DNA of 64,000 bases from Eledone cirrhosa (lineage: Eukaryota). Of this stretch, positions 5,516 to 39,399 are shown piece after piece; the first letter of the stretch is position 1, and the number at the start of each line of letters is the position of its first letter. The notes beneath the pieces are model-generated. The model had not been told where the DNA came from, did not search any database, and saw nothing but the letters and a program-made list of their open reading frames with translations. The stretch lies in contig OZ024743.1 in the NCBI GenBank assembly GCA_964016885.1, forward strand, positions 68,820,001-68,884,000. The letters are read 5' to 3'. Position numbers and translations under genes: made by a program.

Positions 5516-5559
5516 ACTGTCCTGATGAGCGCCAGAAACACGAAGTGTGCGTAGACAGT
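5516..5559 (+). ncRNA. type I hammerhead ribozyme motif
   Basis: actgtc-CTGATGA-gcgcca-GAAAC..GTA-gacagt; stem I 6 bp inside a longer outer stem (about 5495-5582); stem II very short. Confidence 0.6.
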
Positions 5560-15810: not shown

Positions 15811-16071
15811 TGTTGTAATATTGGTGTTGTCATTGTCGTTGTCATTTGAGTTGTTGTTGTTGTTATAGTTGTTGCTATTGGTGCTAACATTGTTGTTATT
15901 GCTGTCGTCACTTGAGCTGCTGCTGTTGCTGTTGCTATTAGTGCCAATAATGTTGTTATTTTTGCTGTCATCTGTGCAGTTGTTGCTATTGTTATGGTTG
16001 ATATTTATTGTCATTTTTACTGTTGTCAGTTATGACAAGTTTTTGTTATAATTAATGCATTATTATGATTA

Positions 16072-17750
16072 CTGCGGAAGCTGGAGCTGTTGCATGGCAT
16101 CCCACTCGAACCGGGACGTGGAATGTCGGTGTCGGATTATGCGGACGACATCACCCTGCTGGTGTCGGAGATCTCAGAAATCGAGGTGATCGGCAACTTA
16201 TTGAAGGATTATACAAGGTTGACAGGAACCAAACTTAACCCGAAAAAGTCGGTGGGCTTGCAGCTGGGAACCTGGAGAGGCAAGCCCATAACGTCCAACA
16301 GCGTCGTGGGGCGCTGGACGGACGGACCGGTAAAGTTGCTCGGGGTTTGGTTCGGGCCAGACCTCCAGCTGTATAAGAATTGGGATAAGGTAACGAGCAG
16401 AGTAGCCAGTCTCACCCAAATTTGGGCTGGGAGGAATCTATCACTGAAAGGTGGCGAATGCGTACATCGCGTCTGTCATCTACTACCGCCTCACCGTCGT
16501 GCCTTGCCCCCGTCCGCGGCTCGTCAAGTTGTAAGGGCTCCTCTTCAAACTCTTGTGGAGGGGCGGCATCCTCTACATGGAGGGCTGTGCATGTCATGGA
16601 TAATGATGCGCAGACATGCGCTGTGGCTGAGATATATCGAGATATTCTGCCTAAAAGGTGAACAGGTGTGGTCGCCGTTTATCAGACGGGCCTTTCCGCA
16701 GCTCGTTTCTTTGACTGAGCTGCAGTCCTGGGTCAAGAAGAGACCGATACTGGGTGACTGGCACCTGGAATTTTGCCAGGCACTCACTTCCCTCTACCAA
16801 GAGGGCAATGCGATCAGTGGAACTTCCACACTCGAGTTCTATAGAGGATTAGTGGTGGGCAAGTGCGATGACGCACTCGGAGAAGCTTTGGGCCTCGACC
16901 AAGTCGAACTGGCCAGTTTGTACAGGAGGACTTTAGAGTCGGGGACGATGAACAATTTCCAGAAGTCTCTCGCTTGGCAGTGCTACCGGGGGGCACTGCC
17001 AGTTCGGGATAAACTCTACAGGCACGGAGGTGCTGTCAGACGGACCTGCCCAAGAGGCGCACAGAACGACGAAACCGTTCTGCACGCACTTGTCCAATGT
17101 CCGTGCATTACTGACTTGTGGAGTTCTGTCGAACAGCTACTGTCACGTGTGGAACGGATCCGGCTATCGGCCGAGTACATAGTGAAGATCGACCCGCCAC
17201 CTTCCTTAGGTCAGGAAGAGCAGGCAATTTTCCGCTGTCTGGTGGCCGTTGCGAAAGAGGTTATATGGTGGACCAGGCTGAAAGGTTTGAAGACAAACAC
17301 TTTTCTCTTCGGCCAATTCCTCATCAACTTCTTCATGTTTCACCTGAAAAGGAGGTGAGGGTGAAGAGAGAAGTGCTGCCCCCCAGTACATTTGCTAAAG
17401 GGTGCATGAATGTGGCGAGAATGGCCCGTGTGAATGGGCCTACTCTGACCATGCGCCTATAGGCTAGCTAACCTGAGGAGAGGGTTGCGCTCCCTGGGTG
17501 CCCTAGAAGCGCAGGGTGGTTCAGGTTTGGTGGGGCACCTGAGTTACCCTGGGTCGTCCACCTCCTATAGGGGAATGTATTTTGTTATATTAACGCATAG
17601 TTTATTTTATATTTTGTATATCTTCATTGTTGAATTGGTCTTGCCATTGTGCAATTTTACTCGACCTTTTTGTAAACCCCCACTGTCCCTGTCTTTGTAT
17701 TGTCCCCTACATGTAGGCCCTTGTGGCCAATAAATGAAATCATCATCATT
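16072..17750 (+). mobile_element. 5'-truncated Tx1/L1-clade LINE (RT C-terminus + zf-RVT-type Cys domain + 3' UTR)
   Basis: SDYADDITLL, KLNPKKS, VKLLGVWFG, W..RNLSLKG, SLAWQCYRGALPVRDKL, CPR..NDETVLHAL.QCP; AATAAA then (ATC)/(ATT) tail; internal frameshifts. Confidence 0.85.
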
Positions 17751-17789
17751 ATTATTATTATTATTATTATTATAATTGTTATTGTTATT

Positions 17790-18868
17790 CCTTGAATCTC
17801 AGTCATTGATGTTGGTTAACTGGAAAGTCCGTTGGATTGAATATCAAGCCACTACCTGCAGCCTCAGATATTCAGGACGTATCGGAGGGTTCTTGCTGTT
17901 CCAAGCAAGCATGCCTTTTGAAGCGTTCCAAAAAGCGTGAAGGGGCCGATTTTCTTTAACCATCCCTGGAAACTTTTGGAGATAGTCCCCATTGCGCCTA
18001 TGACAATCGGGATCACTTTGACTTCATGGCAGTTCCAAATCCTTTTCACCTCCCACTTTAGGTCCTGGTATCGGTTAATTTTCTCCCTCTCCTTCTCTTG
18101 CACTCTCGTGTCGAACGGGCAGGCCACATCCACAATCAGGCACGATCTTTTTTCTTTGTCCACAACCACCAGGTCAGGTCTATTGTGTTCCAGTTTTTTG
18201 TCCGTCTGTATCCTAAAATCCCACAGCACCTTCACCTGATTGTTCTCCATCACCGCCTCTGGCCTATGCTCATACCATTTCTCAGAATGTGGTAGATTGT
18301 TTACTTTGCACAGGTGCCAGTGGATCACCCTGCCCATCACATCGTGTCTCCAGCCCTTATAGTTGGTCTGGGCTAGGTGTTTACACTCGGACACAATGTG
18401 AGCCACAGTCTCCTCTCTCTCTCCACAGATCCTGCACAGTGGGCTGGCCTCCTCCTTGTAGATATGGTGCTTCAACCACTTCGTTTTGAGGGCCTGCTCC
18501 TGCGCAGCCATTAGCATTCCTTCTGTAGCCTTTTTGAGGTCTCCTCTTCTCAACCAGTTCCATGTCTGTGGATCTCTAAATTCAGTTTTCTCAAAGAAGG
18601 TACTATGAAGGGGTTTTCCCTTAAGGCTGCTCTTCCTCCTTGATGTTATTTCCTCCCTGGACATCCCCTGGCCTACTGTCCCCTCCTTCAGTACAGCTCT
18701 GAGCATTGGCTCCTTACTATAGGTCACGTATTTGTATAGGTTGTTTTTCTCCATCTGAACACAGTCCTCTATGCTGATAAGACCTCTTCCACCCTCAGAT
18801 CTCCTTAGGTAGAGTCTATCGACATCACTCCTCTTGTGGAACATGTGGTAGATAGTCAATAGCTTCCT
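17790..18868 (-). mobile_element. 5'-truncated R4/Dong-clade LINE (RT end, CCHC, restriction-like endonuclease)
   Basis: Open frame 18868 to 17864: DRLYLRRSEGGRGL, MAAQEQAL, CRICGEREETVAHIVSEC, RHD, HNRPDLVVVD..IVDVACPFD, KINRYQDL; (TAA)n on both sides. Confidence 0.9.
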
Positions 18869-18869
18869 A

Positions 18870-18943
<74 letters not shown>

Positions 18944-18944
18944 G

Positions 18945-19195
18945 CGTTCAAATCCACCGAGGTTAACTTTGCCTTTCATCCTTACGGGGTCGATGAAATA
19001 AAGTACCAGTAATGCACTGGTTAATTGCTGGTCTTGTGCCAAAAGTAGAAATAATAATAATAATAATAATTATTATTATTATTATTATTAGTATTAGTTG
19101 ACTTTGTCTTTCATCCTTACGGGGTCGATAAAATAAAGTACCAGTGATGCACTGGGTAATTGCTGGCCTTGTGCCTAAAGTAGAAACAATTATTA
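18945..19195 (+). mobile_element. two 5'-truncated SINE copies in tandem with (AAT/ATT)n tails
   Basis: Core ctttcatccttacggggtcga and tail ggccttgtgcc..agtagaaa occur twice. Confidence 0.85.
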
Positions 19196-19205
19196 TTATT
19201 ATTAC

Positions 19206-19312
<107 letters not shown>

Positions 19313-19329
19313 CAAATAATACTAGTAGT

Positions 19330-20522
19330 AGCCTCAGCCGGAATAGACTCAGCAATTGATCTCCACGTAGGTCTGTCGTTCATTGCCGTTGTCAAGTTCT
19401 GGATTTCAATACCAGAATCATTGGACATGACATCGGGATAGGAGAGCTTGCAACCCCTGTTACTAGGGATTGCTTGTGGTTTCCAAAGCACTAATGGGCA
19501 CATAGTCTCTGAGGTTGCCCAATGACAGTGTCCAGCAAATCTTACTCTCCGCTTACGTACCTCGACAGATATGCGTTGGTGACCGTCATATATTTCTTAC
19601 AAAGTCAGATGTCGCCAGCTTATGTTCTGAATGTGTCGAAGTAGTTGAGTGTAGGTGCCATCAAGGCGCTTTTGTTGGCAGGATTGGTTGAATCGTTACT
19701 TGGAGGAGTCTGATTTTGGTGCGTTTGTAAAGATTTGAGCGCCAGATATGATCCATCTTGTTGCAAACTGACGATGCTTCGGCCTTTCTGGTGGAAAAAT
19801 CCTTCTCAGAGTCCATGATCCACGACCCAAGATACTTGAAATCTCCGACTTGCTTGAGATCACTGCCGCTGATTGCTTTGATGCTGTTGCCTGTATAGGT
19901 TGATATGTACTCTGTTTTACCCTCGTTGAGATGAAGGCCAGCGAGAGCGGCTGCTTCCTGGAGAGTTGTCAAAATTTGTTGCGCACATTCTAGGAAATCT
20001 GCAAGAAGTGCAATGACATCTTCAAAGTCAAGATGTTTAGAGGGATACCTAGAGTTCATGCGGAGTTTGATGGTTGTATCTTTGTTAATCATTTTCTCAA
20101 TTGAGAGTCTCAGGCCGTAGTCTAGTTCAATGATAGAGAGGAATAGGTCAAGAGTGTCACCCTGGAGCACTCCTGCTGAGATGTCAAAGAACTCGGTTGG
20201 GCCATCAGGGATAATGATAGTGGCACTTGTGTTGAGATATAGAGCCTTAATTGCTTCCACAAGTCTTCCTGGGATGCCATACATGGGTAGAATTTCAAAC
20301 AGTATGCGGTCAAAAGCTTTTCTAAAGTCAACAAAATCTAAATTCATTTCTGTTAGAGTTTCTCATCTCTTCCACTACTCTTCTCAAGGCCGTAATATGT
20401 GAAAGTGTTGATCTACCACACCTAAAACCGTTTTGGTTCATATGAAGGATTGAATCAACATACGAAACTATACGGTTGCGGATTAGCTTATTGTACATCT
20501 TGGCAGCAATGGGCATAATTGA
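19330..20522 (-). pseudogene. RTE-clade LINE reverse transcriptase remnant to 3' end
   Basis: AAKMYNK..NQNGFR.GRST, FVDFRKAFD, GVLQGDTL, FKYLGS, AMNDRPTWR; frameshifts; bounded by (AGT)n on both sides. Confidence 0.88.
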
Positions 20523-30329: not shown

Positions 30330-31574
30330 TAAAAGATTATATTAATAAGAGGAATTCCAACTTTGTCTGATTTACTCGTTTTATTTACAATCCTTTAAAA
30401 TATATATAATATGGTATTATAATGAAATAGTATGATAGAATATTAAATTCTAAGTGTTAATTGAACAAGTACTTTCATGCTTTCGCAATCTTCAGGTTCA
30501 TGATATGTGGTGACAGTCGAGTTTGCAATTTTCAACTGTAATGAGATGGGTAAATTTACTACCTTTTATACATTTTATACAGAGAAAAGTGGCTCCAGAA
30601 TGCAAAGCCCTGTAAACTGTATTTCGACCAATCAGTGTGTAGTTTCACTGAATTACTACAGCTGATTGGTTTAAACGTCACGGCTGGTTGAGCATGCTAA
30701 CGACCAATAGTCATACCCAACGTATCAATTGTTTTGCTTTTTGAAATGATGAAAATAGCATTTTCTATTAATAATCACCATCAACATCACTTTTATTATT
30801 ATTATTATTGTTGTTGTTGTTAGTGGTCGTGGTCATAGTGGTAGTAGAAGTAATACCCCTAGGCGTTATTATTGTTCATTTAGCTTGGGTTTGAATTTAT
30901 CAATAAAATTCTTTTCTTTGATTTTTCTCTTGATTTCACTTGGGTTGTGTAATTTGAAGAATGGGAATATTATAAATATTCCCTGACCACATGTTGCCAG
31001 GTGGCCGCTTAGGGGTATCTGACGGACATTTGGGTCTCTGATTTGTTGACGGTGTACCCGTGCACGTTCCGATAGTGCATTTCCAGTTTGACCGACATAT
31101 AGTTCTTCACAATTCGGGCATTTAATGCAGTAAATTAGATTTCTGCTTTTGCAGTTCATATTTGCGTTTGGGAATATTTTTCCAGTTTTTGTTTTCATAT
31201 ATTGACCGGCGTGTATGGATTGACATGTGCCGCATCGATTATCATTGCATTTAGATACAGTGAATGATTGGTCTTTGTTGTTAAGGTCAAACTTTGCTTT
31301 TGTTAGCAATTGCTTCAAATTTTTTGGCTGTCTTTTACTAAGAGTCAAAGATCGATCTGTGATTAAGCCTTTTAATTCATTACTTTGAGCAATGATCGGT
31401 AGGTTTGCTTTGGCAGTGTTGAATATATTCATGTGACATGGGTTGTGTGTCATTATAAATGGTATGACCAGTTCTTGGTTTCTTCTTCCTTGGGTTGTTC
31501 TAAGTTGTTGTATAGGTATTTTTATAGCCCGCTGTATGCCATTTTCTATAAGTAGAGATGGGTATTTTTGTTTG
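30330..31574 (-). mobile_element. 5'-truncated Penelope-like element (Neptune-like) with GIY-YIG endonuclease
   Basis: KRQPKNLKQLLTKAK, CNDNRCGTC, NLIYCIKCPNCEELYVGQTG, E..FIDKFKPKLN; HHR in the 3' region. Confidence 0.88.
30462..30500 (-). ncRNA. minimal type I hammerhead ribozyme
   Basis: tgaac-CTGAAGA-ttgcgaaagcat-GAAA-gtac-TT-gttca. Confidence 0.8.
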
Positions 31575-33607: not shown

Positions 33608-33760
33608 GTATATATATATATACATATATATACTTATATTAATATTCGAAAAACTCGGATTGCATATATTGTCATGCAGAGCGAAATTTGTTTTCTTATT
33701 TGAATGTGGCAAACCGGCCATTTATCGCTCCTATACAGGAAACTGACTGGCCAGTCTGCT

Positions 33761-33840
33761 GATATGCAAATTTGGCTAATCAGTGGATCTGCTAATATGC
33801 AGATCTGACTTATCAGCCAGCCTGCTAATATGCAAATCAG
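33761..33840 (+). promoter_or_regulatory. three 33-bp-spaced octamer (ATGCAAAT-like) motifs
   Basis: ATGCAAAT at 33764, ATGCAGAT at 33797, ATGCAAAT at 33830; function inferred only. Confidence 0.4.
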
Positions 33841-33913
33841 GCCGATCAGTCACTGTGTGTTTTTGAAAATAGCAGATATTTTCACTAGCTCTGACAGTTG
33901 GCATGTGAACAGT

Positions 33914-33963
33914 GAACTGTACTGATGAAGGGTGATACCCAGAAAGATTAATCCCTGCAGTTC
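33914..33963 (+). ncRNA. type I hammerhead motif with mutated cleavage triplet
   Basis: gaactgta-CTGATGA-agggtgataccca-GAAA-gattaatc-CC-tgcagttc. Confidence 0.7.
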
Positions 33964-36839: not shown

Positions 36840-36945
36840 ATATAGGAACGAGTAAGACCCCGACGGCTGAGCTCAAGAGGTCTCGACGGCTAAGAGAATT
36901 AGCCGTCGAAACGGGTTGAGCCCAGCCGTCGGGGTCCTACTCGTT

Positions 36946-36983
<38 letters not shown>

Positions 36984-37072
36984 AACGAGTTGGACCCCGA
37001 CGGCTGGGATCAACCCGTTTCGACGGCTAATTCTCTTAGCCGTCGAAACCCGTCGGGGTCCTACTCGTTCCC
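36840..37072. repeat. two GC-rich nested hairpins flanking a (TA)n tract
   Basis: ggaacgagt..gaccccgacgg ... ccgtcggggtcctactcgttcc occurs twice, with inner gacggctaa/ttagccgtc. Confidence 0.85.
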
Positions 37073-38114
37073 ATTACCCACTCTACTACCCTAAGTATTG
37101 AGTACTTTGGTGCGTTTTTGTCCATCTGGTTCCTTACCACATTTCCTTCGTTATATATATGTATATATAGATATATATATATATATTCGGGTTTGAAGGT
37201 TCGCAGCTGGTCAATTCCGTATGGTCAATCTTAATTGTTTTTTGACCGCCATATAGTACCTTTAAATTGTAGACATAATCATAACTATTAGATGTATCAC
37301 GCCTCCCTCTACTTAAACAAATCCCCCTCCTGGTTAAATTAATAGTACTGGTTTGGTACAAGGATGGCCTAACGATGAGGGCTGACTTCCCACTGGCGCA
37401 CATGAAGCCTGTTATACATTCCTAGAGTGCTTGGAAAAATTGATTTCCATATCTTTCGCTAGGCGATCTCACTCGGAAGGGCTGACACGCGGTTAGGATG
37501 GGCCGACGGAGCTTAACATTTTTAAACTGTTTAATTTTTAATTTTCTAATTTTTTAATTTTATAATATTAATATTAAATAATAAATTTTTGTAACTTCAT
37601 CCTATAAATCTAAACAAAAATTTAACGTTCCAATCTTCTGCTCACACATTATAACATGCAGACCCCACTATATTTACCTCTGTTATAATATAAACCTCTG
37701 TCAAGATACGGGTCCTTTAGAATACATTTTTTTCGCATTCCTGGCCTGACTAGCTTGACATTAGTACGGACTTTTCTTCCTCTTTCTTTCTGTCTTTCTT
37801 CTTGTAGCTCGACATTAACGTTGACTTTTCTTCTTCTTCCTTTTCTTTCCCCCTCTTTCTGTCTTTTTTAGTGTAGCATGATATTAACGGTGACTTATCT
37901 TCCTCTCCCCTTCTGTTTTTCTTCTATTTGACCGGGAGGGTAGTAGCACACTATAAGCTTTACACCCCCTCACCAGATAGCCTCAAATAGACCGAATAGC
38001 CAGCACTTGCGGGCCACCGGCTAAAGTGAAAGATGCTAGATGGTCGGTCATCCTCAGGACTTTGATTTTCAGCCCCATGGATTTTATCTATTACATTCAT
38101 TTATTATATTTCGA

Positions 38115-38172
38115 ATACCTGATGATATCACCGGATTCATACGGAACCCGGTCACTGAAATGATCATAGTAT
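38115..38172 (+). ncRNA. type I hammerhead ribozyme
   Basis: atac-CTGATGA-..accggattc..gaacccggt..-GAAA-tgatca-TA-gtat, then AATAAA. Confidence 0.72.
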
Positions 38173-38514
38173 AATAAACCTTTCAAGGATTTACTCTAGT
38201 CCAGCCTCCTGACATTTTATTATAATATATATATAATATATATATAATATTATATATAAATATTATATATATTTAATATATAATATATTATAATATATAA
38301 TAAATATAAGTATGTACACGTACATACATATATGTATACAGACGTACAGTAGTATGTATATATATATACATACATGCACACATATATATATATGTACGTA
38401 TGGATTCACCGAACATTTATTATAAGGCTCGGTGTGTTTGTAAACAAACATCCCGTATTAAGCCGTAGTGTCTCGCAACCATCGTTGCTCGTTTGGTCAA
38501 CACTGACAAAGGAA

Positions 38515-38555
38515 CGATGTACTAGTTTCAAGCTTATTAGCTATCGTCAGCAACG
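38515..38555 (-). ncRNA. minimal type I hammerhead ribozyme
   Basis: cgttg-CTGACGA-tagctaataagctt-GAAA-ctag-TA-catcg. Confidence 0.8.
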
Positions 38556-38938
38556 TATACCTTCCTGCCAGATTGTTGAACGTATATACTTACCTTATGC
38601 ATATTAACGGCTGAGTAGCCCAATTTGCATATCGAGTGGGTTAATCGGCCGGGTGCACCGAAAACGATAAACGGTAAAAATGAAACGAAATTTCATTTCC
38701 CACTCTTAGTACGGCTGTTACTTAAATATAAGTATGTACACGTACATACATATATGTATACAGACGTACAGTAGTATGTATATATATACATGCATGCACA
38801 CATATATATATATATATGTACGTATGGATTCACCGAACATTTATTATAACGCTCGTTGTGTTTGTAAACAAACATCCCGTATTAAGCCGTAGTGTCTAGC
38901 AACCATCGGTGCTCGTTTGTTCAACTCTGACAAAGGAA

Positions 38939-38979
38939 CGCTGTACTAGTTTCAAGCTTATTAGCTATCGTCAGCAACG
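38939..38979 (-). ncRNA. minimal type I hammerhead ribozyme
   Basis: cgttg-CTGACGA-tagctaataagctt-GAAA-ctag-TA-cagcg. Confidence 0.85.
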
Positions 38980-39399
38980 TATACCTTCCTGCCAGATTGT
39001 TGAACGTATATACTTACCTTATGCATATTAACGGCTGAGTAGCCTAATTTGCATATCGAGTGGGTTAATCGGCCGGGTGCACCGAAGACGATAAACGGAA
39101 AAAATGAAATGAAATTTCATTTCCCACTCTTAGTACGGCTGTTACTTAAATATAAGTATGTACACGTACATACATATATGTATACAGACGCACAGTAGTA
39201 TGTATATATATATACATACATGCACACATATATATATGTACGTATGAATTCACCGAACATTTATTATAACGCTCGGTGTGTTTGTAAACAAACATCCCGT
39301 ATTAAGCCGTAGTGTCTAACAACCATCGTTGCTCGTTTGTTCAACACTGACAAAGGATAATATATAATATTGATATATTTATTATAATATATATATATT

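Follow-up and report, generated by a model that had tools for sequence, protein, structure and literature searches.

The tandem repeat that begins near position 38,300 of a 64,000-nt stretch of the Eledone cirrhosa genome (contig OZ024743.1; hereafter the window) raises the questions of what kind of element it represents and how it came to lie there. A preliminary description, made from the letters of the window, had proposed 2.5 head-to-tail units of ~423 bp, lacking open reading frames (ORFs) and set in TA-rich DNA, with one hammerhead ribozyme per full unit. The layout and the non-coding character are borne out: TRF returns a period of 424 over 38301-39357 (2.5 copies, 94% matches), AT-only tracts lie on both sides, and no ATG-started frame of the array exceeds 77 aa. 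Units start at 38301, 38723 and 39147 and have a GC content of 37.5%; unit 1 and the partial unit are 95.8% and 93% identical to unit 2, respectively. We consider it probable that the array is a single copy from a dispersed family of non-coding, non-LTR retrozymes, and that it was likely written into a (TA)n tract by the machinery of a Penelope-like element (PLE) via a 424-nt circle. The insertion and its immediate surroundings are as follows.

38301..39357, minus strand: probable retrozyme-family insertion, single-armed, 2.5 units (TRF, unit alignment and comparison of ends)
38221..38300, no strand: target tract, AT-only, at the short 3' end (sequence and TRF)
38064..38231, plus strand: host site, outside the element; 3' fragment of another repeat, 91% identity (PLE locus comparison)

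The window copy stops at 38301, the 'short' one of two fixed 3' ends described below, and is truncated at its 5' end (39357) 6 nt before the next cleavage site. The host-site fragment at 38064..38231 has a hammerhead of its own at 38119 and ends in the same AT tract as the window copy, and elsewhere the repeat from which it derives follows the ORF of a Neptune-type PLE.

Both full units (2/2) carry a type I hammerhead core in minus-strand orientation, at 38974 and 38550. Each comprises CUGACGA, a 4-bp helix II with a U.U at its base, GAAA, an ACUAGU palindrome and a UA cleavage site; helix I has 6 bp and is extended by two further stems, and RNA folding recovers this extended helix I together with helix II. 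The distance between the two predicted cuts is exactly 424 nt, delimiting a predicted monomer.

38927..38995, minus strand: hammerhead of unit 2, type I, extended helix I; predicted cut between 38944 and 38943
38503..38571, minus strand: hammerhead of unit 1, type I, core intact; predicted cut between 38520 and 38519
38520..38943, minus strand: predicted monomer, 424 nt, strongly self-paired; the span between the two predicted cuts

The core and helices of the unit 2 hammerhead agree with the family majority, and the hammerhead of unit 1 carries one private U.U mismatch in helix I (38517). The earlier claim of an intact minimal type I hammerhead in each unit thus holds for type, strand and presence in both units, and fails for unit 1 at this helix I pair; 'minimal' is also the wrong word, as a helix III is present and helix I is long, an arrangement closer to the axolotl retrozyme hammerheads. 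Among these, HHR_Amex1 shares the palindromic helix III and HHR_Amex2 the U.U at the base of helix II; the latter cleaves, and does so better as a dimer (PMC7229834). Of predicted frog retrozyme dimers, 1/9 cleaved in vitro (10.64898/2026.07.22.740005).

The core-plus-helix-I motif arises 0.03 times per shuffled window (30 shuffles). Folded alone, the 74-nt hammerheads gain modestly over shuffled sequences (z -2.2 and -1.1), and an Rfam search of the array at E<=1 returned no hammerhead family, only TA-driven microRNA noise. The predicted 424-nt monomer folds with a z of -6.3 (0/100 shuffles as good), to which its TA-rich part contributes, and the circular fold of a unit-2 permutation is 68% paired. 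Across family members, one helix I position is occupied by three pair types (U-G 170, A-U 26, G-U 19; n=236), and the U.U at the base of helix II recurs in 195/197 sampled hammerheads. In that census of 197 the core is intact in 159 and the whole hammerhead in 122, the latter an inflated proportion, since the hammerhead had served to select many of the sampled loci.

Thousands of dispersed young copies of the hammerhead repeat are present in the genome. An exact hammerhead 24-mer occurs 12,306 times and exact 77-nt junctions between (TA)n and the 'long' 3' end occur 723 times genome-wide, with 0 occurrences of either control; a 327-bp query gave 497 candidates, and the 40 scored were full-length matches at 94-98%. 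Main-subfamily copies differ from the family majority by a mean of 2.9% (n=127), and older subfamilies extend down to 70-86% identity. Dimers and multimers are both present, so that the genome search yields the dispersed multimeric copies foreseen in the preliminary description and contradicts the single-locus duplication that it had allowed as a counter-explanation. At the DNA level the family accordingly displays each trait by which retrozymes are recognised, namely short tandem units, a GC content under 45%, absence of an ORF, a hammerhead in consecutive units, and dispersal. Contigs of four runs, whose kind is unrecorded, were compared with 311 bases of unit 2; 3/4 runs had cover there, which is uninformative on RNA ends or level.

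The mode of insertion was read from two samples: a first sample of 121 insertions from 111 loci, with duplicates and edge-cut cases removed, and a fresh sample consisting of the first 100 of the 723 exact long-end junctions, of which 95 were kept after removal of 2 already in the first sample, 2 unparsed and 1 duplicate. In the first sample, 151/179 outer 3' ends (in the hammerhead sense) lie at two fixed sites separated by 56 nt, with TA-rich DNA beyond 128 of these 151. The fixed ends correspond to unit positions 1 and 369, and the cleavage site to position 222. The 'long' end of other insertions, equivalent to 39091 in the window and ~10 nt past a T5-6 run, differs from the short end by a one-sided segment:

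39091..39146, minus strand: 'tail' segment, 56 nt (comparison with other insertions)

Two arms joined at their 5' ends make up 58/121 insertions, and where both ends lie at fixed sites, a long end is paired with a short end in 36/38. The fresh sample was picked by its long end only, and its second arm ended at the short site in 31 cases, at the long site in 0 and elsewhere in 4 (the others being 52 single-armed insertions and 8 complex or edge-cut cases that were set aside); simple two-armed cases with fixed ends are therefore long plus short in 31/31. One complex locus among the 8 set aside (L336) has two long ends.

The same pairing in (TA)n is seen in 6/6 copies with both ends visible, among 25 loci, of a young coding PLE of the same genome, which encodes a reverse transcriptase (RT), a Hydra-type CxCx5C linker and a GIY-YIG domain and has its own hammerhead. 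An inverted 5'-truncated copy and a one-sided tail belong to the described PLE layout, and a (TA)n bias is reported for Hydra and Naiad PLEs (Craig et al. 2021, 10.1101/2021.04.23.441226). The retrozyme family shows hallmarks of PLE-type insertion: an inverted 5'-truncated second arm, a tail at one end only, and a microsatellite target. From this end geometry, a PLE enzyme is the likely mover of the hammerhead repeat. The preliminary description had suggested copying by the RT of neighbouring PLEs; the link to PLEs is upheld by the insertion anatomy, but none of the PLE pieces within the window is intact, and the enzyme would have to be supplied by unbroken relatives at other loci; RT+GIY-YIG frames of 844-1096 aa are found in the genome. 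Bystander insertions apart, no partner PLE sharing sequence with the unit came to light in the window or in 68 PLE loci.

Granting PLE machinery, the template could be a circle or a line. Neither fixed 3' end coincides with the cleavage site, which rules out terminal priming on a linear monomer as the mode of copying. A linear, uncleaved multimer copied by the same machinery, with a hammerhead that is weak or dispensable and a circle that is unneeded, is a different matter, and we regard it as unlikely. It would fit the weak helix III and the helix II U.U, which predict slow cleavage (PMC7229834), and Naiad PLEs, which give the same layouts without a hammerhead (10.1101/2021.04.23.441226). Such a template would, however, be expected to leave a pile-up of 5' ends at the start or cut site, or source flanks, and neither was found. 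The 5' ends are evenly spread along the unit, with no excess at the cleavage site in the first sample (5 versus 3.4) or the fresh sample (4 versus 4.8); an excess at unit positions 241-260, near the predicted transcription start, in the first sample (12 versus 5.2) was gone in a pre-set test on the fresh sample (5 versus 4.0). Long arms of the fresh sample cross the cleavage site in 65/95 cases and the predicted start in 55/95, and 48/114 arms of that sample are longer than one unit, a figure that overstates the length of RT runs because long arrays have also undergone duplication at the DNA level. Unit copies within an insertion differ by 3.8% in the same arm and by 3.8% in opposite arms, compared with 5.1% between loci. 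Among 25 two-armed insertions, 20 variants are common to all copies, and those common to both arms show no same-pass excess (5 versus 8), which speaks against a linear template; young source arrays would likewise yield homogeneous templates on that reading. Covariation of helix I between subfamilies also argues against a dispensable hammerhead. These observations fit one homogeneous template, and a circle is favoured over a young uncleaved multimer, since arms continue past both the cleavage site and the predicted start without a pile-up. Circular templates had been proposed earlier for PLEs (PMC4209133). A-to-I editing scars were also sought in the copies, and there was no clear A>G excess (5 versus 2; 12 versus 7).

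Two further explanations dispense with an independent retrozyme. The unit might be the pLTR of an unfound autonomous PLE, the insertions being its 5'-truncated copies; end geometry and hammerhead type are as in PLEs, frog retrozymes are related to pLTRs (10.64898/2026.07.22.740005), and 3/59 single arms (L004, L079, L137) join PLE coding DNA directly. Yet the three joins differ in PLE family and in unit position, direct joins number 0/52 among the fresh single arms, and arms continue into further units and never into a shared ORF 3' end. No element-specific sequence is common to the 5' junctions of 62 + 52 single arms, where common DNA is confined to loci that were duplicated and to additional pieces of the unit itself, and the unit was not the 3' repeat of a PLE in the sampled 24 other L004-family copies, 30 GIY-YIG loci and 14 long-ORF loci. 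The constant attachment to a PLE ORF that the preliminary description had named as fatal to its proposal is hence not seen, as the sampled single arms have no recurrent ORF junction, and we hold the pLTR explanation to be decidedly improbable. The other explanation, a satellite spreading at the DNA level by unequal crossover or extrachromosomal circles with the hammerhead as a relic, has in its favour the amplification in long arrays on C28 (L128, L140) and duplicated units (L016, L081), which attest to later DNA-level growth. It leaves the two fixed 3' ends, the random 5' ends, the pairing of long with short and the (TA)n targeting unexplained; it is largely refuted for the dispersed copies, and as an account of the family we give it almost no credence.

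Several loci merit a description of their own. The L128 and L140 arrays (G000:C28, about 110 Mb) are satellite-like, with at least 13 units and mosaic shared variants. Four units in exact A-B-A-B order occur at L081, an alternation that could stem from a dimer duplicated at a later time, from a template that was itself dimeric, or from an artefact of the assembly. One insertion at G000:C3:89.5-90.2 Mb is present as segmental duplicates (L007, L014, L015, L137) with either 2.5 or 3.5 units, so that the number of units changes once an insertion is in place; its 5' end adjoins PLE RT coding DNA. At L004 / L191-L192 (G000:C1:152.39 Mb), a retrozyme arm directly abuts the endonuclease region of a Hydra-type PLE that is young and has its other arm facing outward; the join is either a template switch or a nested insertion with a deletion. 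Such retrozyme-PLE chimeras were considered as proof of a shared enzyme and set aside: L004 breaks the pairing rule with two short ends, and flanks often contain PLE coding DNA.

A separate question is how such a repeat would be transcribed. Ahead of the hammerhead, both full units contain a promoter-like block resembling those of the host's snRNA genes.

39007..39069, minus strand: promoter-like block of unit 2, with ATTAA, U6-like box, TCAG and TATATA (word and matrix match to host snRNA genes)
38583..38645, minus strand: the same promoter-like block in unit 1 (sequence comparison)

Three host U6 loci and one U6atac locus have in common a 13-nt box at -77 to -79 and a TATA at -30, and host U1, U2, U4 and U12 have in common ATTAA, TCAG and TATA-like words at about -89, -57 and -30. 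The U6-type box of the unit (octamer at 39054-39047 in unit 2) lies 80 nt upstream of the hammerhead core, and the predicted transcription start falls at about 38977-38981, within the 5' arm of helix I. With a matrix from four genes that was built after the match had been noticed, the U6-type 13-mer scores 17.5 bits in unit 2 (0/150 shuffles, 0/228 window tiles) and 14.7 bits in the family majority (2/500 shuffles), and the host genes themselves score 11.5-13.5 bits in leave-one-out comparisons. The distance from the U6-like box to the TATA word is 43 nt in the unit, as opposed to 47-49 in host genes. Under a three-box Pol II model the unit reaches 13 bits, compared with 21-27 for the host genes of the training set, and 1/150 shuffles and 5/228 window tiles do as well; the Pol II-type spacings of 31 and 26 match the host and the words are weak. 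The host's distal promoter word is missing from the sense strand of the unit, and the octamer of the U6-like box doubles as a hairpin arm in the predicted fold. Judged by sequence resemblance, the block may represent a putative internal promoter of snRNA type ahead of the ribozyme. In the host snRNA and RNase P genes, an A(C/T)(C/T)TCCC(T/C)T word stands at -255 to -286 in most U1, U2, U6, U12 and RNase P loci (L051-L077, L097-L105).

These features can be assembled into a conditional life cycle. The internal snRNA-like promoter would start transcription just upstream of the ribozyme and give rise to multimers, from which two hammerheads, probably paired via the ACUAGU palindrome, would release the monomer, and a host ligase would close this 424-nt RNA into a circle. 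A PLE enzyme would then open (TA)n DNA, cDNA would be primed from both break ends at two UA-rich unpaired RNA sites, and the RT would copy round the circle and stop at random, leaving two back-to-back arms; some arrays would lengthen later by duplication of units at the DNA level, and the window copy would be a one-armed outcome of circle copying. In its full form, a self-promoted circular retroelement that combines a host U6-like box, its own hammerhead-processed circle and PLE priming on that circle at two fixed UA-rich sites, this scheme is tentative, and we judge it possible.

The window contains other features of related interest. Further hammerhead-like cores are located at 5522, 8146, 26564, 28249, 28766, 29483, 30495, 33922, 35620, 38119 and 40722; several have a palindromic helix III, and those at 30495 and 38119 have matching motifs that elsewhere follow long PLE ORFs. 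On the plus strand at 33740-33960 lies another element, in which repeated octamer-type boxes, together with TCAG words, precede a degenerate hammerhead (33922); this element resembles the promoter-like block of the retrozyme unit over ~40 nt and is possibly a second retrozyme-like family. A near-perfect 27-bp inverted repeat surrounds a (TA)n core at 36921-37008, and LINE-type RT and zf-RVT fragments occupy both strands of 16069-20362.

In its general design the family agrees with the metazoan non-LTR retrozymes (Cervera and de la Pena 2020, PMC7229834), which have short AT-rich tandem units without an ORF, one type I hammerhead per unit, thousands of copies and a self-paired monomer, and which include a mollusc example, the mussel. 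The unit of 424 nt compares with about 170-400 nt in those retrozymes, for which circles have been demonstrated; in the family described here the circle is a prediction from DNA. Mobilisation by PLEs was proposed there as well, in the portions of the paper relied on here without the two-armed, long-plus-short (TA)n footprint. The non-LTR retrozymes that Li, Clavereau and Pollet (2026, 10.64898/2026.07.22.740005) treat as non-autonomous PLE derivatives likewise depend on PLEs, form monomers, dimers and multimers, and undergo local satellite amplification; the evidence there is co-occurrence and pLTR homology, and the latter was not found here. As far as the consulted parts of that work extend, it samples no mollusc and has no analysis of insertion ends or promoters. 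The Hydra, Neptune and Naiad PLEs share with the family partial tandems, an inverted 5'-truncated second copy, a one-sided tail and (TA)n targeting, and Hydra and Neptune also have a hammerhead in their terminal repeats; their tail is 30-40 bp rather than 56 nt, and the retrozyme family differs in that it has no ORF and the whole element is the repeat unit (10.1101/2021.04.23.441226). Tandem hammerhead units with an internal promoter before the ribozyme are described for newt satellite 2 (snRNA-type; Coats et al. 1994, as cited in PMC2220036) and for schistosome hammerhead repeats (Pol III; reviewed in PMC6765202), while the putative promoter here is a resemblance in sequence, with a U6-type box and weaker words at Pol II-type spacing.

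The class itself is known, also from a mollusc, and what is new, relative to the parts of the literature consulted, is the insertion footprint that links a retrozyme to PLE machinery. Our literature search found no cephalopod retrozyme, with the proviso that the supplement of PMC7229834 may list further invertebrates, cephalopods included, and the main text of a 2026 octopus repeat annotation (PMC13282606) does not contain the words 'hammerhead', 'ribozyme' or 'retrozyme'; the family would add a retrozyme to a lineage for which that search listed none. In the sources consulted, the copying of retrozyme circles into DNA by PLEs is proposed and not shown. The family offers thousands of young insertions whose ends obey the rule of a coding PLE in the same genome, together with two exact candidate priming sites and a 424-nt RNA usable for an in vitro assay. 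If the self-promoted circle is real, the two-end footprint would constitute a direct genomic read-out of the use of circular RNA by a PLE RT.
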